Source: Nageia nagi (lineage: Eukaryota; Plantae; Pinophyta). From it: a stretch of DNA of 64,000 bases. Under the pieces are notes generated by a model. It saw only the letters and a list, made by a program, of their open reading frames with translations, did not search any database and was not told where the DNA came from. Positions 3,301 through 63,410 of this stretch are shown here, one piece after another; within the stretch, counting starts at the first letter, position 1; every line of letters begins with the position of its first letter. The stretch lies in the NCBI GenBank assembly GCA_050084985.1, contig JBITNC010000001.1:141608001-141672000 (forward strand), read 5' to 3'. Both the position numbers and the translations under genes were made by a program.

Positions 3301-4605
3301 AAGATGGTGTGGATTTTGAGGAGATATTTGTATCAGTTGCAAGATAGGAAACTATAATATTAGTGCTCTCTTTGCTTGTAAGAAAAATTTGGATAATCCA
3401 ACAAATGTATGTAAAGAGTTCCTTTCTCAATGGGTACATCTATGAAGAGGTGTATGTAGTACAACCTCAAGGCTTTGATATTCAAGGAAGAGAATACCAT
3501 GTGTACAAGCTCAAGAAGGCATTATATGGGATGAAGCAAGCTCCAAGAGCTTGATATACTAGAATTGATGGATACTTCAAAAGTGTGGGCTTTCAAAGAA
3601 GTCAAAGTGAGCCTACCTTGTATTTTAAAAAAAATGGTTCTAATATTTTGATTTTTTGTTTATTTTTAGATGATTTGATCTTTATAGGAAATAATAGTAA
3701 GATGAATGAAGATTTCAAAACTCAAATGATAGTTGAGTTTGAAATGAAAGATCTTGGTTTGATGAGCTACTTCCTTGGCTTGGAAGTGTATCAAATAAAA
3801 GAATAAATCTTTATGTCAAAATCCAAATATGTACATGATATGTTGAATAAGTTTAGAATGGATAATTTAACATCTATTGCAACACCTACAACCCATGGAG
3901 AACACCTTTACAAAGAAGATGGAGAACCAAAAATGAATAAGAAAGAGTATAGATGTAGTGTTGGAAGCCTAATATTTTTAACAAATACAAGGACAAATTT
4001 ACAATTTAATGTTTCATTTATTGCAAGGTATATGAATGATCCATCAATTATCAATCTCAAGGAAACAAAGAGAATCCTTAGATATGTGAAGGGAACAATC
4101 AATTTTGGAATACATTAGACATGTAATTCCAAGTTCAAACTTACAAGTTTTAGTGAGAGTGATTGGGGCAATGATTTGGATGATAGAAAGAGCAAAAGTG
4201 AGAATTTATTCTCTCTTTAGATCAGATCTAGTATCATGGAGCTCCAAAAACTAATCCATTGTTTCTCTTTCAACTACTGAAGCTGAGTATGTAAGTGTAA
4301 CAAATGCTTCAACACAAGCTCTATGGTTGAGGAAGGTGTTGAAGGAGATTGGAGAGGAGAAAAAAAAATTAAATTACCATTTTTTGTGATAAAAAAGGTG
4401 TCATAAAGTTGGCACAAAACCTTATCCATCATTCTAGAATAAAACTTTTTATTTGAAGACTCATTTCATCTAAGATTTGATGGATAAGGGGATAGTAAAA
4501 TTGAGGTACTATCCAACACAAGATTAAGTGGCTGATATATTCACTAAATCTATGGAAAAAGCTCAAATTTTGTTGCTAAGAGACTTAATTATTGGTCCTC
4601 TTATT
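376..4605 (+). pseudogene. copia gag-pol polyprotein remnant (many stops and frameshifts)
   Basis: gag MESNSNAIPIPKFYGSDYEYWSIQMK and KVLRTLTMRYDHV...LIGSLTSHEER; protease WLLDSGCSNHM (~1365); WHLRLGNLN; integrase ICGPMQTQS...YFITFIDD and HLRVFDCLAYVHV; RT VYKLKKALYGMKQAPRA and LFLDDLIF; RNase H STTEAEY and ADIFTK. Confidence 0.95.
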
Positions 4606-4619
4606 AGCAATGTGGAGTA

Positions 4620-5081
4620 TGAAGACTTTGAAGATGTTAAAGTAACTTAAAACTTGTAAATTCCCTAAAATTTGTGCTTACTATTTTAGTTAAATTCTAC
4701 TCTCTATCTAAGAAATGGTGTCCTACAAAATAGTTAATTTAGTGTGTACCTGACCAATCAGTTATTCCTTCAGCCAACTGGTTTTGATTACTTTATTTTG
4801 TTAAAAGTGTTATCTCTTCATTTCTTTCCCTCACTTTTTTTCTTTTAAAGAATATGAAGTGAATAGTCTAGGTCGCTCATGGCCTAAAGAATGTATCTAG
4901 TTCCCATTTCAAGGTTTTAGTATTGTTGGAGTGTGTTATCAATAATCTAAAGTAAGTTTATGATGTTATGTAAAACTATGAGAATCCACTTATGAATTCA
5001 TTATACCTTTGAGTTGCATAATCATTTTCATCTATGAATCACTTGTATGATTCAATTTATTATTTGTATTAATTAATTTCA
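4620..5081 (+). repeat. 3' LTR of copia element (~460 bp, TG...CA)
   Basis: Starts TGAAGAC just after the PPT; ends ...TTAATTTCA; matches 1-309. Confidence 0.92.
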
Positions 5082-5086
5082 CTTCA

Positions 5087-5720
5087 TAAGATACTTAGGG
5101 TTGGATAATATTGAATTTCTTATCATTCTTTATAAGATATGACTTCTTAGGATTATGTTTGGTTGTATTAACATATTTTAATTGACTTGCTCCAATCATT
5201 GCTAGTTGTTTTTAAATCAATTTATAAGCCATATCCATTAAAGGATCATACATATAATCTAAGTACTACAACTTTTAAAGAAGGCATTATGTTTGCTATA
5301 AATACTTGGGAAATCATATACTTAGGAGTTGATCCTTCTAAATTTCTCCATACCTTTTGAAATCTTGAGATGAACTTTTCTAAATACTCATTAGGCCCTT
5401 GTTTACATATGATTAGATTCATTAATTGTAGTGGCATTTAAATATTATACTTAGAATGGATCTTGAATAATTATTCCATTTATTGATATAATGTTATATA
5501 AATAGACTCTAATATCTAAAACCATTTATGAGCTTCATTAGTCAAGCTTATAGGAAAGTAATTTACCTTTGTATGATCATTAATATCATACCTCAGTTCC
5601 ATAGTATATTCAATTCTCTAAATATGAGGGTTAGGGTATTCTTTACTATTAAACCTTTTTAACTTAGGCTCCTTATCAATTCTTGGGAGAATGATATTAC
5701 GAATTTCAACAAATGAAGGA
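5087..5720 (-). mobile_element. Ty3/gypsy gag (retrotrans_gag-like) remnant
   Basis: ORF 5246..5437 NLIICKQGPNEYLEKFISRFQKVW resembles the gag QxxxE motif and the gag of the element at 18.5-19.3 kb. Confidence 0.65.
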
Positions 5721-9442: not shown

Positions 9443-10006
9443 ATGGTTCCCATTCGACAGGCAACCCCAGCGGATTTACCTGGAATCAAGACATGCTCTT
9501 GGATGTGCCTCGGCGAGACTTACAGACCAACACTTTATGCCCAACACCTTCTTTCGTGGCCTCAGCTTGCATATGTGGCCGAGGATCGCAGCAACAAAAT
9601 AGTTGGTTACTTGCTTGGGATGATGGACAACGAGAAGGAGGAAGAGGAAGAAGAATATGGAAATTACAGACGATATTTTTGGGATACATATCATGGGAAG
9701 ATTAATTCTCTGGCGGTTGTGCGCCCTTACAGAAAGATGGGCATTGCAACAAAGCTCATGGAGGCAGCTCACAACGCCATTTCTAACGTTTATGGAGAGG
9801 GGTATGGTTTTGTTCGCGTCAGTGCCATCAACCGGGCAGCCACAATTCTCTTTCATAAGATGGATTACATATTTTACCATGTTGGTAGTGTTTCTTTACA
9901 AGACCTGAACATATCGATGTCTTTGAAATCCAATCAACTTTTGTGGCAAATCGTATATCTTTTATTCTGGTATTCAGTTCTGGAAGTTGTTCAATTTATC
10001 TGTTAG
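9443..10006 (+). CDS. NAA10: NAA10/ARD1-like GNAT N-terminal acetyltransferase paralogue, copy 1 (187 aa from ATG 9443; native C-terminus deleted and replaced, possibly a pseudogene)
   Basis: MVPIRQAT..DL...C..MCLGETY...Y..HLLSWPQLAYVAED..NKIVGYLL, HGKINSLAVVRPYRKMGIATKLM and NRAA are collinear with plant NAA10 (MVCIRRAT, HILSWPQLLYVAED, HGHITSLAVLRTHRKLGLATKLM). Acetyl-CoA motif RxxGxA is intact. The symbol denotes family, not orthology. Confidence 0.85.
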   Translation: MVPIRQATPADLPGIKTCSWMCLGETYRPTLYAQHLLSWPQLAYVAEDRSNKIVGYLLGMMDNEKEEEEEEYGNYRRYFWDTYHGKINSLAVVRPYRKMGIATKLMEAAHNAISNVYGEGYGFVRVSAINRAATILFHKMDYIFYHVGSVSLQDLNISMSLKSNQLLWQIVYLLFWYSVLEVVQFIC

Positions 10007-17740: not shown

Positions 17741-18440
17741 TATTAACACCTAAAAAGGAATATTATTTTAATTAAAATACCCTTTTAAGTATTCAAAATA
17801 ATTTATTAAATAAATGATTTTATCATTATGCATACTCATATACCTTTATGTTTTATTATAACATGTTAGCTCAACATCATAATAAGTGTAAGGAGGAGCC
17901 TTAGCACTAGATTTGTTACCCATAAAGGTGGAGGGGTTATGCATGATCAAATACATGACATGACATAACATAATCCTGAATCCTTGATAGGTTGAAATAT
18001 ACTTGTGTTATTCTTGTATGGTCTTTCTTAATGCCACCTATCATTTTTGGATTTTGTTATACTTTAAGAATTGTATTCCTATGATATTTTTATCCATTTG
18101 TGAGCGATATTCTAACCATCGAAGGTGATAAGATAATATTAAGTGAAAGTTTAAGGTAATCATATAGTCTTGTTGGGTTCCTACCACTAGCATTGGGTTG
18201 AGGATGGATCTGTGGCTCCATTCTTTAGAGAATCTCCTTGTTCATCCTCTTTTAGTTGGATATTACCTTTGTTGTTTGTAATAGGTAAAGTATAGGCTTG
18301 TATATTTCATAAATCCAATTTGATAGGTCAAGGTCAATTAGGTCATTATCATATTTCATATCATCATTTAATGCTATTGTATGATTAATTAATTATATTG
18401 AATATAAATAACCCTAATTATTATTATTTTGGTTATAAAA
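17741..18440 (+). repeat. 5' LTR of Tat element (~700 bp)
   Basis: Collinear with 25590-26315 (e.g. CATAATCCTGAATCCTTGATAGGTKGAAATATACTTGTGT). Confidence 0.92.
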
Positions 18441-18547
18441 ATTGGTGAACTTAACTCCTTTTTGATACATCATGTTATCCTTCACTAGTTGCATCAAAAC
18501 CCTAAGATTTTGGATAGGACTAATCTTTCATTTCAAGAGTTTTAGAA

Positions 18548-25589: not shown

Positions 25590-26315
25590 TTTTAACATCT
25601 AAAAAGAAATTTTCATTTAATTAAAATACCTTTTTAGGTATTCAAAATAATTTATTTAATTTATTAAATAAATGCTCTTATCATTATGAATACTCATCCA
25701 TGTTTATGTTTTATGATAATATGTTGGCTCAACATCACAATAAGCCTAAAGAGGAGCCTTAACACTAGACCTATTACCTATAAAAGGTGTAGGGGTTATG
25801 TATGATTTAATTTATGATATAACATGACATAATCCTGAATCCTTGATAGGTGGAAATATACTTGTGTCATTCTTGATTGGTATTTCTTAATTCCACCTAT
25901 CATTTTTGGATTTTATTATACTTTGAGCTTTGTATTCTTGCAATATTTTTATCAATTTATGAGTGATATTCTAACATCAAAGGTGATATGATTACATTGA
26001 ATGAAAGGATAAGGTACTCTAGAAAGGTAATTGGGTGGTGCCATTAGGTTCCTAGTGTTAGCACTAGGTTGAGATTATATCTGTAGCTTGTTAGTTGGAG
26101 AAGCTCATCATTTGTCCTTTTTTGGTTGAATATCACCTTCATTCATTTTAATAGGTAAATTACAAGTTTGTACCTTTCATAAAGCTAGTTTGATAGTTCA
26201 AGGTCAATTAGGCCATAGTCATTTTTGATGTCATCATTTACTATTATTCCATGATTAATTGATTAGATTTAATATACTATAAATAATCCTAATTATTATT
26301 ATTTTAGTTATAATA
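25590..26315 (+). repeat. 3' LTR of Tat element (~725 bp)
   Basis: Follows the PPT, matches 17741-18440, and is followed by TSD GTTGG. Confidence 0.92.
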
Positions 26316-27139
26316 GTTGGCATTCTAGGGAAAGTGCTTTCGATATGTTCATTTAACCAATTTAGTAAATGTAACCTATACTGCTTTAGTTTCTCATTCA
26401 TGCTAATATTTTTTAAATAAGTTTATATAGTAAGGGGATGAAATTCCTCTATTATCGCAAGCTACAACATATCTAAAATCCTTTTACTATGTTCATTTTC
26501 ATTACAACATTGATCAAAATTCACCTTTTATTCTAGAGAAGATATTAATTCAAGATAGGGGTGATACCTCTAAGGAAAAAAATACATTAGAAATGAGCCC
26601 TTTGGAGTGTAATTGATGTTATTTAAGGTAACAATTGTGGACTTCTTTGAGGCTATTTTCTTAAAATCTTTATAGTTCTCATGAATCTCTATGTTCATAC
26701 AAAATTTCATCAAATTTTATGCGAAGAAGCATTGATCTGCATCTTACCCATGATATGTTTTAATTAAGAGCCCTAACTATAAGTTTCTTTTGGCAATGTA
26801 TTACCCTTCTCCTACACTCAAATATTTTAACATCTCTTGTTTGATATCCAAGTGCAAGATCAAAATCCTTGCACCACCAAATTATTATTTTGGAAACTAT
26901 GAGAGTGGTGATGATATTTGTGATGAGGCATGTCAACCTACCCTAATTGTAATCCTGCTTAGCCATAATTACATGACTAGGAAAATGATTCTAATATAGG
27001 AAGTAACACTTAACGAATATCCTAATTACTTAGCACACTTTTCAAAATAGTTCTATTTACATATGGTACATCCACTAAGTGATGGCATGTCCCACCTGTG
27101 ATATGATGCAATATTTTAAATGTTGGTCATTGATGGGCA

Positions 27140-28930
27140 TATGTAAAATTTGAACATCCATTCATGCCAATTTAAATGCATTGCATTCTTTCTTTCCAGT
27201 GATGAGGTAGGGTCCAAACCATATGGAATCATACTTCTAATGCTTGTTGGGATTTTCCTCCTCTTCATCCCATTTTAACACTAGATATCCTTATTTAAAC
27301 TCTATCATTGATGATTTCTTATTATCAAATCATCTTTTAATAATGTTATTCCTTCTTTTTAGCCCATGATAGGCTTGATTTTGCATTTCTTCTAAGTGTA
27401 TCAATTCATTCATACATAATTGCATGGTGTCCATGTTTGACATCTCATACTTTTGAAATAAGAGTTAAATTTTTTGTATATGTAGGTAAGACAACCCTGT
27501 TCCCACAAATAAGCATGTAAGAGGAAGAATTGATTGATTATTTATATATGATTTAGTCTACCCATAGAGCAAAATGAAGCTTTTTGTTCTAGTATCTTCA
27601 TTTATAACTAATCATCCTCTTAAGAATTTTGAGTAAATTATTATTTGTAAACTTAGCCAAACCATTGTGTTGGGGGTAGCAGTTAGAAGATGTCTTCTAG
27701 TATATATCATAGTTTGTGGAAAATTCTATGAATTTTATCCCTAAGAATGTAGGAACATTATCTGATATCACCATTTGTAAAATTCCAAAATGGGTGATGA
27801 TCTTCTCCATGAAATTATGATTGTTTCTTGATGTACACTTTTGGTCATTATGGCCTCTTCTTATTTTATAACATAGTTAGTAGTAGTTAAGATAAACTTG
27901 TGTCCAACTAAAGAATTTGGATTTATCATCCTTATAAAATTGAGTTCCCATTGCAAAAAAGGTTCTTCTACCAAAGTTGATTGTAGTGACATAAAAATCA
28001 TCCTCCTATTCCCTACATATTATTGATATTTATCATATTATTTGGCTAACTTAAAGAAGTCAATATAGATAGAAGGCCAATAATATTCAACTTGAACAGG
28101 TTTTATCATAGTTGTGTAATCTGAGAAATGTCCTCCCCTAAGTCTAGAATGAAAGTCTTTAAGGACCTTACTAGTCTCAGTAGGACATATGAATCTCAAT
28201 AACACCACATCATAATTCTTTTTGAATAGTACATTCTATATCAATGTATAATTAAGTGAATTAAACTTAAATATTCTCCTTTCTAGGGCATTCAACTATC
28301 ATGGGGGTTTATAGGTATTAAAATATTTATTTATTTATGTGACCCAATTATTATGTTCATATGATACCTATGATTCTCTTTCATATTCCTCTTGCATGCA
28401 CACTTCTTTGGAAGAGGCATCTAGTGTGCTCTACCCTTCATGATCTTCATAGGTTTAATCTCTACATCATTTTATAGTATTTTAGTTATCCATCTATCTC
28501 TTCAATCCCCTATTTCTCCTTGTAGAATGTAATCTTGCACATCCACGTGGATAATTGGGAAGAATATCTAGGTCTATGATACACATTGCTTGAACTTGAT
28601 TAGAAATTTCATTATGATAAATATCTATTTTTCTATAAAATTATACCTTTCTTCCACATCATGCAAAATCCAACTAAAGAATGCAATAGGATGCTCATTG
28701 TTATCACTATTCTTCTAGATTAATATTGCAACTATACTCTTTTAGGACCCATAAACATACAAGGGAAAATTTTTAATAAGTTTGAATTAACCAATACATG
28801 AGTTTTTATGATTGCCATTTTATTTTCTCAAATGTGTATTTCTTCTTAGGTTTCCAAATGAAAGGGACATATACTTTTAACATATATGTGCTAAGATACA
28901 CTATTTTCCTTTCTTAGAATGGCTATGAAG
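27140..28930 (-). mobile_element. Ty3/gypsy RNase H-integrase remnant
   Basis: Minus-strand EHPIAFF (~28690), GGHFS, YYWPSIY (~28080), EPFxQWELNFIRMINP (~27950), TSSNCYPQHNGLA (~27670), KYDSIWFGPY (~27220). Confidence 0.85.
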
Positions 28931-29074
28931 TTTAGAGCATAATAAATTTCAAGCAATTTCCAAACTATATTTCTATAATACATTAAGTAATGATGTTCAC
29001 CGAAAATCTTTCTTTCACTTGACTTAATATAAGGTTTGAGTCACCAAATATGCTTTGGCAATTAATATTCTTTT

Positions 29075-29360
29075 AATAATATCTTAAACCATACATGAAA
29101 TACCTATAATAGGAAAATAGAGGCCACATGAGGTTTAAAAATTGAAATTAAAAACTCTTTGTATTTTTTGATACCTATAAATCTTATTGGAATAGGCTAA
29201 AGTTTTGGCTTATTATATAAAATAAGGATGAATTCAACCTTAACTTTGATGTTTTTAAGATCTTAAAATTGCAGGATTTTTCTAATGAGTTTAGAATCTT
29301 AGCCTTGCAATTTGATTTCTTCAATTCATCCTAAACTGTATTGTTTTGGTATGAAAAGTT
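29075..29360 (+). repeat. Dispersed repeat copy A (~285 bp)
   Basis: Matches 38655-38940 (CATGAAATACCTATAATAGGAAA...CACATGAGGTTTRAAAATTGAAATTAAAAACTCTTT...TCTAATGAGTTTAGAATCT). Confidence 0.88.
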
Positions 29361-31479: not shown

Positions 31480-33280
31480 TTTACACTTACATACAAAGGA
31501 GAAGCTACTTGGATTTTATAATCAAGAGTTTATCCTCATAAATAGATCCATAAATAGGTCTCTTGGACTTTATCACCAAGGGCCTAGGCTATACTCTAAT
31601 TTCATCATAAAGATAGTTTTCCCTTATGTCATCATTTTGTGTGATTTTAAATAACAAAATATGATGGTTTCAATTGAAAAAGTTTTGGATTACTATAATT
31701 CCAAGTGATGATATCAATGAGTAAAACTACTAGTTAAAGGGTATTAAAAAAAAATTATTTTATTCGATAAAATGGTGATTTTTTAAAAAGGGTTATTAGT
31801 TGTTATACAGGGGTTTATCATGAGGGGTTGAATAAATTAAAATATAATGTGGTAAATTTTACAAAAAGAGGCTTTTTAAAGAAGATTATGAATGCACATG
31901 TTTTGAAGGCTTTCTATTAAGTGACTCTCCCATGGAAAAATGAAATAGGAAATAAATTTTGGTTAAATTAGGGATGTTTTCCACCTTGACACCATATGGA
32001 ATCCAAAATTATTGCACCTAGGTGTGAATAAAGGAATCAATCATAAATCTACCTAGAAAATAACCAACTAAAGTATGAATTTTAAACCAAGTACATTCAG
32101 ATTGAAAGTTTTCAAGAGGAATGCAAACTTCAATAATGGAGCCTTTACCTTATGGAATATATTTGCAATAACTTTGGACAAATATTCCTTTATTTTTTTT
32201 CAAATCCCTAGATATCATATTCAAGAAATTTATAAATAATGGATATGAATTATCCCTCACACATCAAGGTTTGTTCAAGTTACTAATTGTAGATGCTCAT
32301 GCCAAACTTCTAGTACTAGAAAATAGGTCATGGACACATTTTTGAACTCAAGAAGGGCTAACCCTTATGAAAATTAGAGAATAAAAATTCTAAGATGAAG
32401 TTATGAACCCTCTTATAGATCAATAAAGAGATGAATAGTTTTAGAATCAAAAGAAATTAACCTTAAAAGAATAGATAAAACCATCCAAAATAGCTAAATG
32501 AAAGAGCAAAGCCTCTAAGTTATGCTTGCTAATGGAAGAACCAATTCTAGATCTAGAACAATTATAATCTTCTAGAGTAACTAGGAGGAGATAAGAAATA
32601 TCCCTATTTATAACACATGTAAAAATGAAATAGGCCAACTTGAGGATAAAATTGAAGATAATTTGATGAAAAATATAAAAATTAGAAAATAAATTTTACA
32701 TTCTATGTGTAAAGATAAAATTAGCTAAAATGATTCTTCCATGCCCTTGTAATGTGCACATAAAAGAGTTAGTTTTTTGAGTTACAACCTTAGCATTCAA
32801 TGAGCTTTTTTCCCATGAACATCTAGAGAAGATAAATAATGAAGCTCTAAAATAACAACCAAGTAGTGGAGATATTTTGAAATTTGTAGAAGAATAAAAT
32901 CTAATAGACATTGTGCAATTGAATAAGAACTGTGAGTAGATGAAAGGACTTAAAATTCTCCATTTGTCATTTTAGCAAATGATATATAACCCATGGACTA
33001 TGAAGAGTATCAATTTCCTTTAGAACTTGAAGAGGAATAACTAATTGAGAAGGAATAATTATAAGATACTATAAACCTTGTGGACATCATAGAGTCTACC
33101 ATTGAATTGGGAAAATAGGTAAAATAATAGAAAAGAGGAAAAGAAAATAAGAGCCAAATGGCAATAGCTTCAAAGGTTTCCCTATGAAGACCACATAGTA
33201 ATATAAATTGATGATTCAAGTTTGAAAGAGCTTGAATCCAAAACTTATCTTACCTTAGTAAAAGAATAATAATAATAATT
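31480..33280 (+). mobile_element. Probable LINE 3' remnant carrying extra ORF-X (copy A)
   Basis: KYIQIES, NIPLFFFKSLD and HQGLFKLLIVD (32262) match the ORF at 56550-56870; ends AAAACTTATCTTACCTTAGTAAAAG(AAT)n, similar to the LINE 3' end at 55391-55430; possible RNase H tail near 31540-31590. Confidence 0.55.
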
Positions 33281-38654: not shown

Positions 38655-38940
38655 TAATAATATTTTAAACCATGCATGAAATACCTATAATAGGAAATAG
38701 AGGGCACATGAGGTTTGAAAATTGAAATTAAAAACTCTTTCAATTTTTTAATAACTAAATATCTTATTGGAATAGGATTAAGATTGGGATTATTGGTTTA
38801 AATAAGGATGCATTAAACCTTGATTTTTATGATTTTATAAGATCTAAAAATTGTACAATTTATCTAATGAGTTTAGAATCTCAACATTGTAGTTTAATTT
38901 CTTCAATTCATCTTAAACCTTATTATTTTGGTATGAAGAG
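38655..38940 (+). repeat. Dispersed repeat copy B (~285 bp)
   Basis: Matches 29075-29360. Confidence 0.88.
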
Positions 38941-40142
38941 TTAAATAATTTTATATAATCAAATAATCATAAATTTTAGAGTGTCTCAAGTTTGAAATGA
39001 TGATCTCCAAAGGTTTATAAGTATCTATAAAATAGGGTAATTATAGATATTAATACCTTGTTTGATGAAATTAAACATGAAAGAGATTAATGACTTAAAA
39101 TGACATTGATGCATCCTTTTATATCTTTCATAATAAATAAAAAATGAATGTTAGATAACATTATGAAATTCTCTCCAATATTTTAAATAATTTTAGATAC
39201 ATAAATTGAGATTTATAACAAATCAAAAATTAAAAGTAGGTCTCTAAGATATTTCCCCTTTGGAGATGTTGTGGTAGGAATGAAGGCCACATTTCCAAAT
39301 TGATAAAAGAAAAAGATATTCATACTTTTTGGAGATATATCCTTAAAATGATAATAATATTAGTGAATACCATGAACTTATTATTTTGTATTTTTAATAT
39401 TTTTAATGCCCTTTTTATTTTTGGGATTGGTTGTAGATCCTTATGTAAAGCAATGAATTTGAAGTAAAACTGAACATATAAAATTTGGAAAGAAAGATCC
39501 CAACAAGTAGTTTAGATATTTAATATCATTTATGCCACTTCAAAATGGTATGGGGGATATTAAAAAATCTTGATAGTGATCAATAATTGATCAAGAACCC
39601 AACACTTATTAGTGAAAATCATAAATAAGAATGAACAACTTGAAATACATAAAGAGCTAAGCAATATATATGAAATGACAATAATACCATGTAATGAAGA
39701 ATTTGAAGAACATGAATAGTATAAATATCTTGAAAATAATTAAGAATGCAAGAAGTATATAATAATCAATGAGCATAATATAAGAAAAGGAAAAAAATAG
39801 TCATTCATGATAAACATAAATAAAAACTGAAGAGCTAGATATAAAGAAGATCTACTTGAAGGATTTAAGAAGATCTCATTGATGTCATCATAATATGAAT
39901 ACTTGAAGGATATTCTATTCTTTTGAATATTAAAATGGGTTGTGATGTTTCCCCAATTGAGTATATGGAAATGATAAACAATTAAAAAGTTAAATCAAAT
40001 CCTAAAATATATAAATTATTTAAATAGCTAATTAGTAACATGTTATTATTATGGGGTTGCCATGATTCATACTTAAATGCCTAAAAGATAAAAGAGGAAT
40101 AATAATTATTAAAATAATTTGAAAAGCATTGCTATTGATCAA

Positions 40143-46000: not shown

Positions 46001-48438
46001 TTGGTGAAACATAGTAGCTATCCTCACATTTCTCTTGAGATGATCTTATATTAATGAAATACATTATGAAATATACTATAAAATAATATCTTTTAGTGAT
46101 TGAAAAACTTTAACAAGAAAAACTTAATATACCTAATTTTTACTTTTATTTATTTATTTTTATTTTGAACTTAATAAGAGTTATTAAAGTTAGAAGATAA
46201 GATGGAGACTTTATTAAGAGAATTATTTTATTCCTTATCCATATTTTATATGATAGGTTTTCATACTTTTTTGAACTTATGTACCTTTCCATCTTCTCAT
46301 TTTAACCCTTTCTTAACTACATACAAATATGTTAATGTTACTTTTTTCTTGATATTGTACCTATAGTTATCTATAATTTATTTTTTCACTTCTTGATAAT
46401 TTTTTGAAAAATAAGTAGGATTTTTGCAAAACCATTCATTAACTTCTATCTTAAAGCCTCTAGGGAAAAATTCAGCTTTTAACTTATTGTTATAAACCAA
46501 TTTTACTCTACATTTTTCTTGAAAGTTGGTGAGGTGATATTTTAGATTACTCTATTCTTGAAACACATCAAACCTATGGTTTTATAATTTATAGGTAGTG
46601 GAATATAAAATATATATCAATGCAAAATTATAATATTTAAGATATCAAAATTATATGTTTCATATTTATTTATATTCATTTTTTTATTCTAATATTTCAA
46701 ATTTCTTAGAAACTTTTAATACATGATTTTCTAATTACTTTGATTACCTTTCTAGCTACCATTTTGAATAATTCTACAATTCTAATTAACCTAACTAGTT
46801 TGTATTACAAATAAATAAAATTTTCCCAATAATCCATTATCATTCAAAAATCTTTTAAATGTTTCTAGATTTTATGATAATGTTTACATTTTTTATGTTT
46901 TTTGAGTTTTTGGAAAAAATTCAAATCTAAATAAAAGTAACTTGATACATGGTTCAAGCAAAATTTAAATTTTTAATAAAAAATGAACTTCAAGTTTGCT
47001 AAAATTATTTACCTATGTTATAAGAGACATATTACTAAATAATACGTAATTGAGTAAACCAAGTGATAGGCATCTTAAGAGATTTAACATATTTAGAAAG
47101 TTAAATACATATTTTATGAACCACTTTATATTGTATAATATTTATTGAATACAAATAATATCTCTTCAAGGCTTAGAGTTCATTTAAACAAGAACTAACA
47201 TTACAACAATGTATAGTTGTGATCCCATGTAGTATTTTGACTTCTACATATGCCTTATGTGATCAATTATTTACTAAAGATGATAGATAATCATTGGTAA
47301 ACAATGAATCCCTTGGTTATGATGAATTCCCTTATGAATTTTATAAATCCTTATGGAATATTGTTATTAAGATTTATTTTAAATTTATCTAGAAGTAATT
47401 CATACTAATTATAAAGGGACTCAATTAATTACATGAGTAATTTTATATTTAAATCAAAATATAGAGATTCAAAAGAAATCAATAATTGAAGGTATATTAC
47501 CTTATTGAATATTTATTACTAAATCATTATTAAGGTCTTAGTTCTCTACCAATATAACTTGGTCCTACTAATTAGTAATCTTGAACATATAGTTTTTATT
47601 TAAATTAGATATATTTTAGATAACAATACTACTATATTGAAAGGTATGGAATAGGCTTATATCTTTCAATATAAAATATTATCTATATAACTTGATTCTA
47701 CCACATCTTGTAATCATATAAAGTAGCATTTCTATTATTTCAATATGACAAGCTTTAGGATTTCATAATCTTCATCCACTCTTTCAAGATACTATTTGTA
47801 AATACCATTATTTTTTCTTAAACATTAATATTAAAAAATATTTTATGACATTTTAAAATCTATTTTATAGGGTTGTCTAATTTATCCAACATTATATAAT
47901 TTGGTGGTAAAGGGTTTTGGGTATTTAATTTCCTATATAGTTTCTCATAGTTTAGTTAAGGACATATCCCTTAGCCATACTATACAATAATTTGTTAATG
48001 AACATTTTAGAGATAATTACTTTATCAACTTACTAAACAATAAACTAATACCACACAATCATTTCAATGCTTACATATAATTTGCCTAACATTAGGATCT
48101 ATAATTTAAGGGTAGCAACCACAAGGTTATCATGAATCCTTCATTTATAAACATTTATAGCTTAATGAATTTAATTATAAATAGATTGAGCATAGTAAGG
48201 TGTTTATATTTATTGAAATTTACTTTGTATTCCAATATTTTGACTCTTATTCAAGCTTCTTCAAGTTGACCCACATGGGTCACTTAATAGAAATTCTTCA
48301 AAATATGTCCATTCATAGTCTTCTTTAGAAACCCCCTATTTTTAAAATTTATCACATTCTATTTTAATTTATTAAACTCCTCATGGTAAACCCCTATATA
48401 ATAAATGATAATCCTTTTAAAATTTAGAGTTAAAAAAA

Positions 48439-50909
48439 TATATTGAGATCACTTGCAACTTCAAAGATTAAATAAGGAAAAAGTTAGAATAATTCACAAC
48501 AAAATGGAGAAAGAAATTTCCATTAACAAAAACAAAAATTATAGAAAACTCCAATGCTTCATGCTCAAAACTAGTTTTTCCCATTAAGGGGTCATAAGTT
48601 GGACTATAGGAAGGTGTTGTGAAAGGATCTACAAATAGGTATAAATAAGAAATCACCACCAATAAAAATGCAAAAAAATAGGGTTTAAATTTGAACCTAT
48701 CATTAATGCTTATAAAGGTAGGTGGAATTTTAAAATTAAAAATCCTAATAAATACCCAATGTAAAGGAATACATTAAATATTCAAAAAGTATATGGCATG
48801 ACACCTTTAACCTAAAAATTAAATAAAATCTATATACAATTTAAAATTTAAAAAGGTCTCCATATTAAATGTAAAAGCATAAATAACAAGGGGGTTAACT
48901 AATTATCTATAAAATTAATCCACCAAATATATTCTCCCTACAAAAATTGAGCTAAAATAGACTATGTATTTTTCCAAAAATAAATACAAAAATCTATCCA
49001 TTGGATAAAAAATGAACTCATGCATGGAGAAAAAGGTAGAGGGTGATATGCAGGAAGGTTTTGTCCATGTAGGAGAAGGAATAATCATCATGTTGGATAT
49101 CCATGAAGAGGATCTCATCCATGTGTATGGGTAAGGGGGGATGATAAAAAAATTACCAAATACTATCAAACATTTCTATACTACCACAATAATTTCCCCT
49201 TGTGTCATAACAGTGTTAGATCAATAAGTCCACAACGATGGTGGGTCCACCTACTTTTTTTAAAAAGTGAGTGCATAAATGTTGAGCATTTATACACATA
49301 GATACAAAATCAAATGGATTTAGATAGATTTCATCACTAATGCTATGTTATGATGGTTAAAATAGTGTATTTTAAACCCAATAACTTGAGTTCAAATCCC
49401 ACAGAGAACCTTTTCATGTTATGAGGTTTTAACACTTATACATTTTTCATATTTTTTATAAGCACTTGATGTTTATACATGGATAATAAACATATAGTAT
49501 TTATCACAATCAACACAGTGAAAAGCACCTATAGTTTGTATAATTTTCATTGCCCAAAAATTAATGAACCTCTAACATTGTTAAGCATAATAAGAGGGGC
49601 ATTTTTGTTATAGTATAAACTACTCCAAACACTATCGTAACATGTAAGAGACGTGGAGAGTAGATAGGGAAGAAGATGAAACTTTCAAAATCCACTAATA
49701 CCTATTTTATAAGGTTGACTCGATGAGAGAAGACCATATTGATGTTACAAAATGCGTGAGGGATGGGGATGCCAAGAAAATCATGGATGAATAGAGGGAA
49801 AAGGGACAATACCAAAAGAGGGATCATCATGAAGTACACAATAGATATTTCCAAATGAAATATGTCATGCACTAAGGGGGATATGCCATATGCTACAAAG
49901 GTAACTATAAAAAATGGTGAATATCTTTAACTCATAAGAAAAACCATGCCCACTAATAGAAGAAGCAAATTAATAAATAAAAATCCATTGAGTATGGAAG
50001 GAAGGATGATAAGAATCAATGATATTGCATATTTTAGGACAAATATCATGCACAAAAGGGGCCATATCATGTGCATTGAGGGCCACAATACTAAATACCA
50101 AGAGGATCATTAAGTAGAGGGGGCTAAAATGGGGACCATCATGCTATGCATCATGAGTGAACAAAAGCAAGGGGTTGCTAACTGAGGAGAAATGATACCA
50201 TGCATGGAGGAGGTTACAAAAATGTTGGATGAATGTTGAGAAAAAATCCATGTGGGACTATAGAAGCTACCACTAATAGTGGAGAGGATCTACCAATGGA
50301 ATCCATGAGGCTAGGGCACAACCAAATAGCAAAGGAGACATAAGACTTAAGAGCTATTGAAAATAACCATATTTACTCTTCATGGAAAATATGAAGAGAA
50401 AAAGACTATAATTTATAAATTATATAGAGATCACTTGCATATTTGAAGAGTAGTTAAGAAAGAAGCTAAAATAATTCACAACAAAAATGGAGAAAGAACT
50501 TTCCATTAACAAAATAAAAATTACAAAAAACTCCAACACTTTATGCCCAAAATTAGTTTCACCCATTAAGGGATCATCAATTGGATTGCAAAAAGGTGTT
50601 GTAAAAGGAGCTATGAATATGTATAAATAAGAAATCACAACCAATCAAAATGCAAAATATTAGGGTTTACATATGAACCCATAATTAATTCTTACAATGG
50701 TAGGTGACATTTTAAAATCTAAAATATAAATATACATATAATGTGAGGGAATATATTAAATATTCAAAAAGAATATGACATGGGATCTTTAACCTAAAAT
50801 TTAAATAAAATCTATATAAAATTTAAAAAGGCCACCAAGTTAAAATGCAAAAGCATAAATAAGAAGGAGGGGTCCACTAATTAACTAGAAAGTCAATCTG
50901 CCAAATATA
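48439..50909. repeat. Pair of ~490-bp direct repeats (48439-48931 and 50421-50909), LTR-like
   Basis: Collinear copies (ORFs 48468..48662 and 50420..50644 are mutual homologues); TTCTCCCTAC after the left copy resembles a minus-strand PPT; no TSD found. Confidence 0.8.
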
Positions 50910-50918
50910 TCCTGGAGG

Positions 50919-52350: not shown

Positions 52351-53269
52351 ATCCATATTTTAGTGAATAGGAATGCTTAAATAAGCTCTAATGTGTTTTT
52401 ACAATTCTATGTCTCGGTGAACAAGGTGATATTAGAGGTGTCACACTTACAAACTATTATGGATCATTGGGTCAATACCTAAAGTATGGCGTAATGCATC
52501 CTACTAGCTTATCTTCCGTATTATAGTTAGTTTTGAGAACTAATTTTATCTTGAGGGTAGAGTCACTATCAAATAAAAAGCTCACAAGATCTCCACTAAA
52601 TCCTTTTGCATAGATATACAGGTTACAACTACTCAATAACTCATTTCCCTATTTGCCTAACATGGGAGCCTAAGGTTGGCTCAAAAATAACAAGTTCCTA
52701 TATCTTAACCTTAGACGGATGTAAAATATAACTATATGGCCAATCCTCCTAATAAAAGTGATGACTTAGGATAAAATTGTCCCTCAAACACTCATGATCC
52801 ACCTTTTTAAAGGGGAGTCTCCTTGATCATGATCCACAACCTACACTTGACTCTATTGCTATTTTTGATACATTAATAAATCATGAGTGTTATATTTCAT
52901 TTAAATTATCTTAGGTTTGGTTGGTTGGCTTTATACCTAAACATAAACTTTGAGATGTGATTGAAATATGTGAAATTTACACAAATTGATATTGTATGAT
53001 ACATAAGTTGAAAATGTCCTGAAAATATAGGACGGTAAATTCAAAGACCGTCCAAATTCAACGCAATTGTTTTTAAAATAAAAAAATATACATGGGTAGA
53101 AATAATGTTTATTGACTCGATTTGCATTTCACGTAAGTTGCATTTGCTTCCACCCAGAATCGAAAAGAGCTCTGAACATTCAAGAAAGTAAGAGGAGAGA
53201 AAAGTGGATCCGACAGTGGGCACAAAACAGGAATCTGTGTTAAAACATTCAAAACAAGAATTCTGGACT

Positions 53270-53758
53270 ATGGTTTGCATTCGACGAGCAACCCCAGCCG
53301 ATTTGCCTGGAATGGAGACATGCTCTTGGATATGCCAAGGTGAGATTTACAGCCGAACACTTTATTCCCACTATCTTCTTGCTTGCCCTCAGCTTGCATA
53401 TGTGGCCGAGGATCACAGCAACAAAATTGTGGGTTATTTGCTAGGGATGATAATGGATCCATTGACGAAGAAGAAGCACAACATTGAGTTGACGATTCCA
53501 CATGATATTTGTGGGATGATCATTTCCCTGGCGGTTATGCGCCCTTACAGAAAGATGGGCATCGCAACAAAGCTCTTGAATATGGCTCACAACGACATGA
53601 ATTACGTTTTTGGAGTGGAATATGCTGCTCTTCGAGTCAATTCCATCAACAGGGTAGCCCTCAGTCTCTTTCAAGAGATGGACTACAAATTTTTCAAGAA
53701 AGTACCCCAATTCTTTGGTAACGACGAGGACGCATATATGCTGCTCAAGCAATTGTAG
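53270..53758 (+). CDS. NAA10: NAA10/ARD1-like GNAT N-terminal acetyltransferase paralogue, copy 2 (162 aa, intact)
   Basis: MVCIRRAT start as in plant NAA10; PQLAYVAED..NKIVGYLL; SLAVMRPYRKMGIATKLL; EYAALRV.SINRVA; FFGNDEDAYMLLKQL corresponds to YYADGEDAYDMRKxL. Open frame, CpG retained. The symbol denotes family, not orthology. Confidence 0.92.
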   Translation: MVCIRRATPADLPGMETCSWICQGEIYSRTLYSHYLLACPQLAYVAEDHSNKIVGYLLGMIMDPLTKKKHNIELTIPHDICGMIISLAVMRPYRKMGIATKLLNMAHNDMNYVFGVEYAALRVNSINRVALSLFQEMDYKFFKKVPQFFGNDEDAYMLLKQL

Positions 53759-53961: not shown

Positions 53962-55390
53962 TGTTTCTTTACAAGACTTGAGCATATCCATGTCTTACAA
54001 ATGGAATCATCTTTTCTTCTTGTTTTCAGTTTTGAAATGTGATTCAATTAGTCCGTTAAAGGAAAACGAAAATGATAATGTTTGGGTGGATTCAGCATAT
54101 CAATGCTGTTATATAAAACTAAAACGATATTTCTTTTGCCCACAACCTGTGAAAGATTATGCGCACATTTCGTGTAGCCTGTAAGAGACTACTATCTTGT
54201 TTGGGTCTCCGTGAAGAAATAGCTTAACAAATATATGTTTAACCATGTCAATTCTGAAGTATTTTACTTCAATTCCCATTCTTTGAATGTCAAATAGTTT
54301 ATTCCAGTGTGTTTAAATGTTTCCACATATAAGATAAACATACATGAACGGATGTATCTATTAGTCTCGATGTTTTCTTTCATGTGTATCGTGGTTCTTT
54401 TACATTAGATTTATAATTATTTAGGTCACGTAACAAGTTATGTTATAAATAGTTATTTATTTGATATTTTAAAAATATTATTCAATTAATTTATATAATA
54501 TCTATAGTCATTTTTCATTTTTAAGATGTAATAAATAATTTTTTTGTACATGGATCTTCGTTAATAGAATGTTGATATTTTTAAGATAAATAGAGATTGA
54601 AACAATTTATTAAATTGAAATATATTACAAGAAGGATTTATGCGATAATTAATATTAACAAACTATTTATCAATTTATTATTCAAGGAATAGATAAAATT
54701 TCATGATATCATTCTTATTCAAGATAACAACTTTAATGCATTATATGATCAATTGATGGAAACAACTAAAAATAATATTGGGTAGATATAATTATAATAA
54801 TAGCACCAAAGTTAAAACACCAACATTGGAGTTATAATATTAGTAATTATAAGGATATAAAGTGCACATAACTTGATAAAAACTTGTATGGTTTGATTCT
54901 ATATCGAAAGTGATTTCAAATAGTGTATAGAATAAAAATGTTGTAATAAAATATGATTTATAGATCTTCTAGAAGTTGGCAATAGTGTCTAGAAAAAATG
55001 GAGGGATAAAAAGAAAATTTGCATAAATATGGATGATATAAAATGGTCTTTTAGATTCTAAATAATCTTACAAGTGTTAAAAAAATTTCCTCATAAAATT
55101 TTAATGATATGGAAAACTAATTTGATATTTATAAGAGAGAAATTGATAATGTAATACTTTATTTCATGGTTCAAGAATTCTAATAGTCATGGTGGCTCTT
55201 TAATTCTTATGCAAAATTTTAATCTTTTTCAAATGTATGAGAAAATTTTTGATTTTTGTATCTCATCTAGCATAAATCTACAACATATTCCACCTTGATG
55301 TTAAGTGGTATAATAAGCTTATCTCAATCTCAAAAAATTCTTTTTAGTGATTCTTTTCATGAATAAGTCTGCAAGTTGTTGCTTACTATT

Positions 55391-58300
55391 TTTTTAGATA
55401 AGGGTAAAAAATATTTACATAAGGTTTTCCAAGAAATAGGGTCATAAAACCTATATATACATGATAGTATAGATATTCTATAGTATTATATTTGAGTCAA
55501 AAAGCTATCACAAAGTTTCCCTATAGTTAAACAAAAAGCTATAGGCTATGGACTATCATCTTTTTTCACTAGCTCCTCATTGCACCAACCATACATTGAC
55601 TACAGTACTAAGCTCCAATCAACTTCAAAGTTTGAGTCTTTCTTGTTGAAATTGTCCTAGAGAAGTTCCATTTACATATTTGTTAGTCCTTCCAAATTTG
55701 GGATTGGGATGACCATGGGGATTTTTTTCTTATGAGAATCTAGAGTCACCTTCCACCTATCCCTACCAAGCTTCTATATATTGGACCACAAGTATTGAAT
55801 AGCCTTCATTTCCTGTATGACTAAACAAATATTTCTCCATTATTTTTCTCTCCTTCCAATTCATTCCCATTCAAAAACATGTCTAAGTTTCTTGTATACT
55901 TTCTTGAATCTCATTTTAGGGACGATAGTTTGTAACTTACTAGGGCTAGCAAGATCCTTCCTAGAGTAATTATTTTTAGGAACCTATTCCTCTTAGGGGG
56001 GTTGAGGATCCTCTACCTCATCCTCATTTAGCTGGCTTTGGTTTCCCAAAGGAGAGTTAACATCCATATTTTTATATCCAATTTTTAGGGGCAACCACTA
56101 CATGTCATCTGATTCTTTTGGAGGAGCCCAATGGTCTTTAGATATATCCTCCATTAGCTAACATGTGGGTTTCTTAGGGAAATTCTCCTCCATATCCTTT
56201 ATTCTTATAGCATCAGGGGATTCCAATAGTTCTTCCTTTTTTTCTTTCTCAACCTCCATCTCATCTTCTTTTATATCTTCATCTTCTTTTGTATCTTCAT
56301 CCAACTCTTGATTATCTCCAAATTCCTCCAAAACATTTCCCCTTATCCTAGATATAGCTTCATTATCACCATCATCTAATACTAAGTCCTTTGAGTCTAA
56401 AGAGACTATAATAATAGGAGAGATGCTAGGCTCCTTGGTTGGGTGAAGTATTAGTTGTGAGCCACTACTAAAGGAATCTAAGTCTACCAAAAGAGGTTCA
56501 AGAATGTATTGAGACATGGGTCTCATCCTTCTTTCCTTTGTCTACTCAAAATCCACCAAGATTTTTATTAATCCTTAGTGCAATAGAATTTCTCTCTTAT
56601 GCTTTCTAAAATATGCATCAATTGAATTATATAGAAAGTAGGGGCCATTGTTCCTATATGTTCTTGTAAAATGATTTAGCAAAACAAAGTAAACCCTAAA
56701 TAGTTCATTGTATCTACCTTCTATAGTGAATAGTTTCACAATGAATTTCACCACCTCATTCCAAGGATATCTAATAGATGCAATTGGGTAGGCTAATTTC
56801 TTTATCTTTGAAAGATGTACCCCTTTCCTATAGAATGTATACACTTTAAAAACCAAAGCCCTCATTTCCTGATGTACCTATAGCTTGAATTGACCATCCC
56901 CATAGCCTCTTTAATCAATTCAAGGTTAATTAAAAAACATCACCCATCTACCATGATACTTCCTCCATTCCAAGAAGTTGCAACCTAACTTGACTAGTTA
57001 GTATTGTGGCCATTCAGGGCATCTATGAATCCATCTATACCCCCATTTTATAAGATATGCTAGACTACTTAGTCCCTCCTAATTTCTTTCCCTATAACTA
57101 CTTATAAATGGTTTTATCTTATCATCCTTTATGTATGCAACCAGAATGTAGAGTGGCTATGGGTGTTCCATTCTAATAAGTAAATTATAGGTTTCCATTC
57201 TAGAAAACAAATGTAGGCTCTCCACCTATGCTCATAATCAATGACCAATATCTACTCAATCCATGGCATTTGTATGAAGAGAGGGCATGCCATTACTACA
57301 CATGCACTCCTCTAGGCTTTTCTTCTATCATTCACATCATCATGTTAATGCCTTTCTTACCCACCCACCCTACATGTATTTGAATCTTGCACTTCATCTT
57401 TATAGATAAGCTTCAAGTTCTCATGTGCCATATAATGAATTTTTCTTATCAATCTTTTCATTGTAATCATTTTCTCTTGTAATATTCATCTATTTCTTTC
57501 CTTCCAGATTTCCCAAAGCATATGGGGGAGTTTCATAGCCCATATTCATTTTTCCTCTTTACTAAGAATATTAGGATACCATTTAGAAATTAACTTAGTG
57601 ATATCAATACCAAACTTGAATCTCTTCTCTCCTAGGATTCCACTCAAAACTTCATGTGTAAGGGAATAATTGGCATAAATGATCAATTGATTCTTCCATT
57701 TTGTAACATAGAGAGCATATATTGTAAAGAATTTATCCTCTCTTCCTTAAATTGTTAATAGTAAAATTTTGGTTCCTAAAGACTAGCCATAAGAAATGGG
57801 TTACCTTAGGAGTAACACCTTTTAGCCATACATTCTTAATAGGAAATTCATTTATATCTTCCACTAGGAGGGAGCAGTATCCAAACATTACTAACTATAT
57901 ACCTCCTTTTCTTGGTTTCCACATTGGGATGTATGGCTTATAATCAAGAGGTAAAGGTGCTGAGACTAACATATTGTTGACTATTTTTGCAACAATGGCT
58001 AGATCTTATCTTGGGGATTAAAGAATGCTCCATGCTCTTTACCTATTGCTATCATCCATATAACATTAGGCTTCCCAACCCACATTGTTCCTTTCCCATA
58101 TAGCTAAATCAATTAACTTTGAAACTTGTATGAGGGGTTTTTTATCAATCCATTTATCTTGCTAAAATTGTACATCTTGATCATTGCCAATGCTCCAAGA
58201 GACATTCTCCTTCAAGAAGTACCTGATTTTGGAGATTTCCTTCCAAAAAGTTGATCCTTTCCTATTCAAGTCATTCTAAATGAAGTTTAATCCTTCCAAT

Positions 58301-58706
58301 AGGTATTTATTCTAGTATATGTTTATACATTTTCTTTCCTCCCATGTTCTCACCTTCCTGCCAACTTCCCCTATAATGCTATATTACATTATTGCAAACT
58401 ACAGAGTCCTAGTCCTCCTTGTGACTTTAGTTTGCAAACTTTAATCCAACTTACTTGGGAAATTCTCTTTTTCTCCTCCATTATTATCTAGAGGAATCTA
58501 TTATATATTTTATCAATTTAGTCACATATGCTTACTAGTATTTGAAATACTAAAGCATAGTAGACTTGCATGCTTTTAAGTATTACTTTCACTAAGAGAC
58601 ATTTTTTCAACTATAGATAAAGTTGCCCCCTTTCATCTTGCAAGTTTCTTCTAGAACCTCTCAATCAAAGGCAGTCATAGGTTTTTTTTTATATGGTCCA
58701 ACAAAT
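55391..58706 (-). mobile_element. 5'-truncated L1-type LINE with extra 3' ORF, poly(A) tail and 18-bp TSD
   Basis: AAGTTGTTGCTTACTATT at 55373-55390 and 58707-58724; T-run 55389-55395; ORF2 C-half at 57400-58706 (LFVGPYKKN, KKLAR*KG, VSWIKVCKLKSQGGLGL, VSWSIGND...DKWID, zf-RVT-like EESIDHL). Confidence 0.92.
55550..57135 (-). pseudogene. ORF-X (copy B): LINE-borne ORF of unknown function, ~500 codons, disrupted
   Basis: NGGIDGFIDALNGHN...SWNGGSIMVDG*CFLINLELIKEAMG; ORF 56575..56865 PWNEVVKFIVKLFTIEGRY...LLNHF...PYFLYNSID; H*GLIKILVD; acidic tract in ORF 56158..56526. Confidence 0.75.
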
Positions 58707-61700
58707 AAGTTGTTGCTTACTATTGTAGTACATTAAATTTACAATATTCATATCTAAGATATCGTTATAAAATAAAATTTCAAATGGAGATGTTTAGATA
58801 TACTATAGTGGGTTATACTATTAATAATTTTGATTACACATGTTTTATCATGAAAATTCTTCATTATATTTTCCAATAACACATCCTTCACACAAGCACT
58901 TATGCTCTCAAACATTAGGTAGTCTATTTACTAAGTCTTATGAAGATAAAAAAAAAATGAACATTTGAAATTCAAGACATAAAGTCTAATACACTAAAGT
59001 GAATTCTTATCTTCAAGTATCATGTGTACCAAGCTCATATACATTTTTCTTCTAAAATTCAAAGGGAGCATCTAGTTCTTTGACATAAAAATAATTATTA
59101 CCAAATAATTTGTATGATTCCTTTCATAAATTATAAATTAATTATTATCAAATATAACCTTGTAGGTATTTTCTATAAATTATCCTATACTTTATAAATT
59201 ATTATTCAAATAAGATCATAGTGAATATCATGGATTTTCTCCATGCAGGTTATTTATTACCAAAGTTTATTATATATTTTGGAACCACATATAAATTATC
59301 ATTATTTCCAAGTATAATCTTGGTTCTAAAAATTTAATTCACCATAGAAAATAAGTTTTTCATTCCAATCATGTGGCTAGAAAAATTGGAATCTAGGTAT
59401 CAAACTTATTGATTAGTTTTTTGTAATTATGTGACTAGTTAGAAATAAACTACCTTATACCACATGTGCATATTCATCCTCGTGTATATAGTGGCTATTA
59501 TATTTCCATTTATGGTCTTCACTCTAAAATCTAATATTATTTTTCCACTTCTACTATAATTTTAGTATTTAAATCTTCTTTGTTAAATCCTTTAACATCC
59601 TCTTTAGATAATAATAATTACACTTCCTCTTACTCTTCTACTTCTTTTACAATTTTAATTTATTTCTCTTCCTTATACCTTTCCACATAGAAATTTTCAA
59701 CTTATAAATAAAATTATTTTCATCATTTTCTCTAAAGGTTTCTCTTGGTATTTTCTCATATTGAATAAGAGAACCAACTAGGTAATCAAAATTAAGTTTA
59801 GAAAATATTTATACTCATCAATAATTTGTACAATATGATTCCATGTAGGGGTAATATATATAAATAATTCTTGAAAAATACATATTTTTTCAATGTCTCT
59901 CTAAGGGTGGCCATCTTCTTCACCACATCCTTCACTCAAATAATAATAACTTACATTATGAACCTCTTTCAATATAAAATTCTTAAAGTTTTCTTAAGGG
60001 TATGTTACTTGACTATTAGCAATTGATTGCTTCCTTTGTAAGCTTGTTAAAAATACTTTCAAGCCTCTTTGGTTTAGGTGTTAATAAAAATAGATGGAAA
60101 TAAACTTTTATCAATGCTATAATGAATATGGTATAGGGCTAATGAATTCGTTTTTTTTTTTAATTTCTTTTATCCTATTTGCTCCTTATAATATTGTAAA
60201 ATCAAGTATCTCTCCTCATAACCACTATGTACTAATTTTATAAAACTATTATCTAATAAATAAGGTCATAATCTATATACTATAATATTTATAATATTAT
60301 TTATTAAATTTTATAATGGGTAATGAGCTGATGAAGTTGATCATTAGAATTAAGCAATAATAGATGCATTTTTCACTCAATTAACTTGTCAAACAAGTTA
60401 ATCAATTATATTAGAAAACCATATAATTAAATTTTTCCAAAACTAAAAAAAAAAAATCTATATTAATAAAATAAAAAATAATTTACACTAATTATAGTTA
60501 TGGAATTATAACTAAAGAATCATATCTATAATAGCAGCATAACATTTATAATTGTAAACATTAAAATTTGATTTTAATAAATTTAAAATATCTACTTAAA
60601 ATAATAAAATTATAAATTATATATGGAGTAATAAAACAACTAATTCACTAACTAGGTCATAGATGAAAATTTTTAATAAATAATAATACAACTTAATGAA
60701 CTAGACCTTACACTCATCAAATATGAATTATAAATGAATAAAGAAAGCTATATTATTTATCTAATTAGAATAAATAAATCTATATTTAGCTTGAAATGGT
60801 TCATAATGAACTTCACTTAATTTTGGACTTTTATTATTTGTTATTTTGATGTATTTTCACACTATATATAAATATGGAATCATATGATAGTATGATATTC
60901 CATTAGACATACAATTCAAATTCAAGATAATTATCCTATTCACCAATAAGAAATACTAATCTTGAGATGAATATAAATTTTTTATGGTAGTGATATGAAT
61001 AGGGTACAAATTTAGACTTGATATGTTGTGATAAGAATCACTCGTTGCATCCAATAATGAGAATTATAGAATGTATAGATTATAATATATTAAGGTTTGA
61101 TTCTTCTTATGTCAAATAGATATTTCTTCTTTCATAGATGACTTATCTCCTTGCCAATATACCTCACTTAGCATTGTTTGTACCTTTCAATATAAAATAA
61201 AGAAGTTAGAGAATAATGTATATTAGATGAATCAATAGGATAATATTTCAAATATATAAATAAGGTACATAAATAAATTATTTATTTTGTAAATGTAAAA
61301 TATAACTTTTAATAAATTAAGAATTAAATTTAGAAGCCTATAGATGCTCCTCTATGAGTATATTTTTGTGTAACTAACTACATAATCCAATAAAGAAGAT
61401 AAAAAATTAAAATAATCATGGACTTTTGAAGGGAACCAATGCAAAAAAATACATATAATGCCATAAAAGTTTTACTAGACACATATTATAACCTAAATAT
61501 TATTAGCAAAAAGTATATCATAACATCATCATCACAGCATACAATAATCATCAATTGCTTAATACTTAATAATTAAAGGGATTGGAATAATAAAACAACC
61601 ATCAAGTTCTTAAAGACTAAAGAATCAAATGAGAATAAAACAATATAAACCCATCAAGTAGTTAATTATCCAAGCATACTAGTTATTTTATTTCTATGGT

Positions 61701-62872: not shown

Positions 62873-63410
62873 CAATTGATTTACCATACACACATGGAAC
62901 CAAATTGACACTAAACACACATGGAACTGTCTTGGCACCACACAAGTTCTATTTGTATCTATAGTTAGAATGATACATATACATGTAACCAACTTGACAA
63001 CACCATACATACATGTAACTGAATGGGTACAATATACACATATAATTATATCAACACCATACACATATGCAATTTACTTAATTCCATATAGAAACCTTAT
63101 ATTTGCAATCAATCCATTACCATAAACACATGCAACAAATTTGATGCCATATACATATGTAACAAGATCAATATCATACACCATATACACATGTAACTGA
63201 CTCAACCTCACATAAATTCCTTATATTTGCAACTAATCTAGTACCTTTTAGGCATTCAATTGGCCCATAAATATATACACATGCAACTGGATCAACACTA
63301 TAACCCATAGACATAAGTAATTGACTCAACATTACAACATACTACAACCGATCCAGTAACATATAGTCATGCAACTAGTTTGGTGCCATTTCAACCATGC
63401 AATTGAATCA
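62873..63410. repeat. Degenerate tandem array, ~27-bp unit (core ACCATAYACAYATGYAAC), roughly 20 units
   Basis: Repeated CCATACACACATGGAAC, CCATACATACATGTAAC, CCATAAACACATGCAAC, CCATATACACATGTAAC, etc. Confidence 0.85.

Follow-up and report, generated by a model that had tools for sequence, protein, structure and literature searches.

The DNA analysed here, a stretch of 64,000 nucleotides from the conifer Nageia nagi (contig JBITNC010000001.1, positions 141,608,001 to 141,672,000 of the forward strand; the window), carries on its minus strand a truncated long interspersed nuclear element (LINE) of the L1 type in which ORF2 is followed by a large additional open reading frame (ORF), ORF-X. This copy was compared with L001, an independent copy of the element recovered in a metagenome scan. 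The features of the locus, in the direction of the element, are given below, where pN/pS is the ratio of nonsynonymous to synonymous differences per site, RT is reverse transcriptase, and UTR is untranslated region.

58707..58724: target-site duplication, 5' copy; identical 18-mer, with L001 homology starting directly inside
57357..58706, minus strand: remnant of L1 ORF2, decayed and truncated at the 5' end, covering the region after the RT; zf-RVT near 57861-57673, stop codon 57359-57357
57126..57356, minus strand: noncoding spacer of 231 nt; no codon-position bias, one 1-nt indel relative to L001
56540..57125, minus strand: N-domain of ORF-X, approximately 195 codons with a frameshift close to 56866; fold predicted to resemble that of VANC21
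55945..56539, minus strand: ORF-X acidic linker, rich in indels (several); 26% D+E, pN/pS of 0.67
55546..55944, minus strand: ORF-X conserved C-domain, about 130 codons; 50% identity to L001, pN/pS of 0.34, stop common to both copies
55396..55545, minus strand: 3' UTR of 150 nt; 97/145 positions identical to L001, 65/80 in the final 80 nt
55391..55395, minus strand: short A-tail; A-run at the same point in L001
55373..55390: target-site duplication, 3' copy; identical 18-mer
58725..59400, resuming below 55373, minus strand: host, a decayed copia-type element split by the LINE; RNase H motif halves, weak Pol_BBD

The identical 18-mers at 55373-55390 and 58707-58724 enclose 3,316 bp and occur just twice in the window. 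In a chance control, simulation of 200 regions of 14 kb produced some exact 18-mer repeat in 9 of them. Both copies abut exactly the limits of homology to L001, and because they mark the exact ends of that homology, we interpret the pair as a real target-site duplication. The 58707-58724 duplication is still perfect despite the many C-to-T stops in the insert, which is plausible given that it has five G/C positions only. CpG has been almost wholly lost from the element (observed/expected ratio of 0.01). A long duplication, an A-tail, and 5' truncation are characteristic of target-primed reverse transcription of LINEs, the route by which this L1 copy would have arrived. A target-site duplication of variable length, a 3' A-tail, and no long terminal repeats (LTRs), together with RT followed by zf-RVT in ORF2, are features of the L1 clade that this element displays; the RT is read from L001 and the zf-RVT from the window copy. 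The ORF2 remnant in the window matches zf-RVT (PF13966) with an E value of 8e-13, and L001, which is colinear, reaches further 5' into the RT, where an RVT_1 fragment (E value of 7.7e-5, below the curated cutoff) is the one 80-codon piece from which the RT region is known, the L001 contig ending inside it.

These observations bear out much of a first-pass annotation, made by a model from the letters of the window alone, which had proposed the perfect 18-bp duplication around 3,316 bp and, on the minus strand, the C-terminal part of L1 ORF2. Other proposals needed adjustment. The spacer, put at about 250 bp, measures 231 nt, and the disrupted ORF of about 500 codons begins on the minus strand with a presumed ATG (57125), ends with the stop codon 55548-55546, spans approximately 525 codons, and is broken by 20 internal stops and the one frameshift. 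The A-tail is present but short, with five A residues plus two that belong to the duplication. The copia-type host can be recognized in the two flanks, each of which we read as one half of the end motif of a copia-type RNase H, although Pfam support is weak (Pol_BBD, E value of 0.006). From the proposed three-ORF lineage the third gene stands, and ORF1 is assumed: the window copy is 5' truncated, and neither truncated copy reaches ORF1 or the N-terminal APE endonuclease.

Alignment of L001 with the whole element gave 61% identity over 3,367 columns with an identical order of parts, and the L001 flank 3' of the A-run had no match in the window. In the coding frame, three segments of ORF2 had pN/pS values of 0.23, 0.46, and 0.27, and the N terminus, core, linker, and C-domain of ORF-X had values of 0.39, 0.43, 0.67, and 0.34, all of which are rough upper bounds that include neutral decay after insertion and are drawn from synonymous sites near saturation. 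Differences were in excess at third codon positions in ORF2 (P = 7e-12) and in the ORF-X N-domain (P = 2e-12), linker (P = 4e-4), and C-domain (P = 2e-5), and the end stops of ORF2 and of ORF-X each fall on the same codon in both copies. Three further stops inside the ORFs are shared, at 58490, 56160, and 55776; because a third copy of the C-domain, P0088 (E value of 3e-29), has Gln at the last of these positions, parallel C-to-T decay explains the shared stop at 55776.

By contrast with these coding regions, the spacer gave pN/pS values of 0.78 to 1.18 over all six frames and no significant third-position excess (P = 0.29 to 0.87). On the basis of the pN/pS values, the third-position excess, the shared end stops, and this noncoding spacer, ORF-X is, as judged from the two sequences, a gene in its own right that the LINE lineage has maintained, and the architecture is very probably that of an L1 lineage with a separate, conserved ORF-X downstream of ORF2. 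The first-pass annotation had likewise supposed that the LINE RNA included ORF-X, an accessory gene of the whole lineage, and had pointed to selection and linkage as its tests; the colinear second copy and the purifying selection agree with it, the pN/pS of ORF-X (0.34 to 0.67) is not near 1, and ORF-X lies 3' of ORF2 and co-oriented in both of the two copies with readable context, a small sample. The coiled-coil tail that it had also proposed found no support, though no coiled-coil predictor was applied: the last approximately 130 residues form the conserved C-domain, which matched no Pfam family and for which the structure model failed (pLDDT of 31.5, from an alignment of three sequences). 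A one-off 3' transduction, a process well known for L1 (PMC6431247), or a later nested LTR-element fragment might be suspected from the large size of the domain family. Such an origin is already largely refuted, and very improbable, in view of the purifying selection on ORF-X and of the recurrence of the order, the spacer, and the 3' end in L001, an independent copy whose synonymous sites are close to saturation.

Identity in the spacer (125/230) exceeds that at four-fold sites (32/88; P = 0.006), a comparison open to alignment bias. Because of this excess and the high identity at the end of the 3' UTR, the sequences suggest cis functions for the spacer and for the terminal 80 nt of the 3' UTR. 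The spacer is a possible cis element for expression of ORF-X, which would probably proceed via a subgenomic RNA or by reinitiation. Alternatively, ORF-X could be made within the ORF2 protein by read-through or splicing, as with the ORF2-terminal RNase H of some plant L1s; in the window the end of ORF2 and the start of ORF-X share a frame, the spacer has a single 1-nt indel, and its lowest pN/pS, 0.78, falls in the shared frame. However, stops stand at the same two positions, 57359 and 57314, in both copies, the frames are one base apart between the copies, and the spacer lacks codon-position bias, and we judge such a fusion improbable. A word-indexed search of proteins of 434 to 2,000 amino acids also found no long fused protein, which is weak evidence.

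Searched with HMMER against 1.84 billion proteins, the N region of ORF-X yielded 82 homologues at an E value of ≤0.001, 6 of them at 1e-10 or better. Among 20 homologues looked up, 3 were Ginkgo proteins, the sole ones with an organism name. The metagenome scan, based on an alignment of five close sequences, gave three loci, one of them, L001, real; L002 and L003 were 18-residue matches, taken for chance. P0088 and an N-domain piece, P0011, each come from an 8,361-bp contig, probably the same one. No match was obtained in word-indexed protein searches with the N region (one query was partly off-frame, and the other covered proteins of 434 to 2,000 amino acids) or in locus scans of viral contigs and prokaryote genomes, and PDB sequence searches gave no match, one returning just E values above 0.6.

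The majority of the homologues lie outside the LINE-linked clade. In the window, a heavily decayed, distant homologue of the N-domain is found at 32181-32333 (plus strand; E value of 5e-8), in antisense orientation to a gypsy-type RT RNase H remnant some 3.5 kb away, at 28500-28800 (minus strand), and no L1 ORF2 match was found near the homologue; this relic is possibly an LTR-borne form of the ORF-X module. In L001, a PMD ORF at 4453-5130 (plus strand; PF10536, E value of 2.5e-22) lies about 750 bp downstream of the LINE A-tail, and this LINE copy probably inserted in a PMD-bearing LTR element. The outlying homologues and the relic would fit a hitchhiker whose benefit falls not to the LINE but to the host or to another element family, such as an LTR donor. 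We give that reading little credence, since ORF-X is under selection inside the LINE lineage at a strength comparable to that of ORF2.

The ORF-X N-domain is basic, and its structure model is compact and mostly helical. From this model, the domain is predicted to have a fold like that of VANC21 (PDB 9lnk and 9lnj), with 4% identity, a likeness that the first-pass annotation had missed. ORF-X has no hydrophobic segment: its top 19-residue Kyte-Doolittle mean is 1.38, and the transmembrane threshold is about 1.6. That it encodes an env-like membrane protein, as had been hinted, is hardly credible given this hydropathy, the properties of the N-domain, and the absence of a match in a viral fold library, although its position, downstream of the polymerase gene, matches that of the env-like ORFs of Athila and SIRE (PMC6317226). 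The accompanying hint, a link to the "putative plant transposon protein" family, survives as a lead: language-model likeness in the ESM Atlas to the Transposase_32/ATHILA ORF1 type was 0.90 for P0021 and 0.77 for P0010, and none of the 82 homologues passed the Pfam cutoff for these families (best, PF20167, E value of 0.037).

VANC (summarized in PMC12844716) is likewise encoded by an accessory ORF, in which conserved domains accompany a variable region; its carriers are the VANDAL Mutator-like DNA transposons, whereas ORF-X is carried by a non-LTR retrotransposon. VANC is described as dicot specific (PMC13547354), in contrast to the gymnosperm host of ORF-X, and its domains DUF1985 and DUF287 had no Pfam match in ORF-X or the 82 homologues. 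Structural homology of VANC and PMD has been reported (PMC13547354; 10.1101/2024.09.27.615353) and extends to MAIN, MAIL1, and MAIL2, which, unlike ORF-X, are host genes; an ORF-X profile did not match one PMD-type ORF. Accessory ORFs outside the core polyprotein also occur in the Athila, Ogre, and Tat LTR elements, Transposase_32 has been linked to ATHILA (PMC11728184), and PMD-A has been placed in gypsy elements (PMC5418596). ORF-X is instead linked to a LINE, and its C-domain is known so far in its own lineage alone, in contrast to the Transposase_32 (PF20167), ATHILA ORF1 (PF03078), and PMD (PF10536) ORFs. It may have been captured long ago from accessory genes of these types in LTR elements.

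From the predicted fold, the ORF-X product could well be a DNA-binding accessory protein that counters host silencing of the element, though we stop short of calling this probable. DNA of the element itself would be bound by the N-domain, which together with the acidic linker and the C-domain would help master copies to stay transcribed; owing to the 3' location of ORF-X, most truncated copies would retain it and could provide the protein in trans. Two points weigh against such a role. VANC acts on tandem motifs in noncoding regions (PMC5735166; PMC10398659), and no shared tandem motifs were seen in the spacer or 3' UTR, the 5' UTR being absent from both copies; in addition, related host proteins promote silencing. 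The main rival keeps the architecture and assigns ORF-X another role, in tethering the LINE particle to chromatin for heterochromatin integration or in binding the element RNA. The fold alone reveals no function, both copies lie within or beside other decayed retroelements, and the lack of tandem motifs also suits this rival. However, insertion amid repeats would be expected in a genome of this kind and the sole solved relative is a DNA-bound anti-silencing protein, and we regard the rival as rather unlikely.

Plant L1-clade LINEs resemble the element in the zf-RVT-bearing 3' region of ORF2, the long target-site duplication, the A-tail, and the 5' truncation, but they have been described with two ORFs, ORF1 and ORF2, the latter with an optional C-terminal RNase H. 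Here, an extra selected sense ORF of about 525 codons follows ORF2, which departs from that description and suggests that modules have been exchanged between non-LTR and LTR elements. The extra L1 ORFs in the part of PMC5203782 drawn on are ORF0 and mammalian antisense ORFs, and the paper never mentions gymnosperm, Picea, or Pinus. In the titles and abstract openings searched, no LINE of a plant was found to have a sense ORF 3' of its ORF2; Repbase, Dfam, Heitkam 2014, and the publication of the VANC21 structure, which lay outside this search, may already record the architecture or the link to the fold. The selected third gene is real and, as far as checked, new; its anti-silencing role, based on the model, is suggestive and unproven. 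A still more tentative proposal is that the third gene of a gymnosperm L1 lineage specifies a sequence-specific anti-silencing protein, the first in a non-LTR retrotransposon, and that the VANC/PMD/ATHILA-ORF1 fold is an old mobile module of DNA transposons, LTR elements, and LINEs that predates eudicot VANC. If the VANC21-like fold reflects function, LINEs would join the Mutator-like DNA transposons as elements that encode anti-silencing. A testable function would then be on offer for the many extra ORFs in plant retroelements that lack an explanation, with a bearing on the persistence of element activity in heavily methylated giant genomes. The proposal that VANC arose from host MAIN in dicots would be questioned, as retroelements of gymnosperms would already carry the fold as a mobile module.

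Elsewhere in the window, a weak translated match to L1 ORF2 at 42092-41916 (minus strand; E value of 0.002) is possibly another old LINE fragment. Direct repeats of 79 to 85% identity pair 17743-18445 with 25592-26320, 48435-48935 with 50417-50913, and 29074-29360 with 38655-38942; these are candidates for old LTR pairs or dispersed repeats. A degenerate array with repeats of approximately 30 to 60 nt occupies 62879-63376. Two intronless-looking GNAT acetyltransferase ORFs, at 53192-53758 and 9443-9900 (both plus strand), are 75% alike in DNA and lie in CpG-richer islands; presumably NAA10/ARD1-like, they are likely a dispersed retrogene pair.
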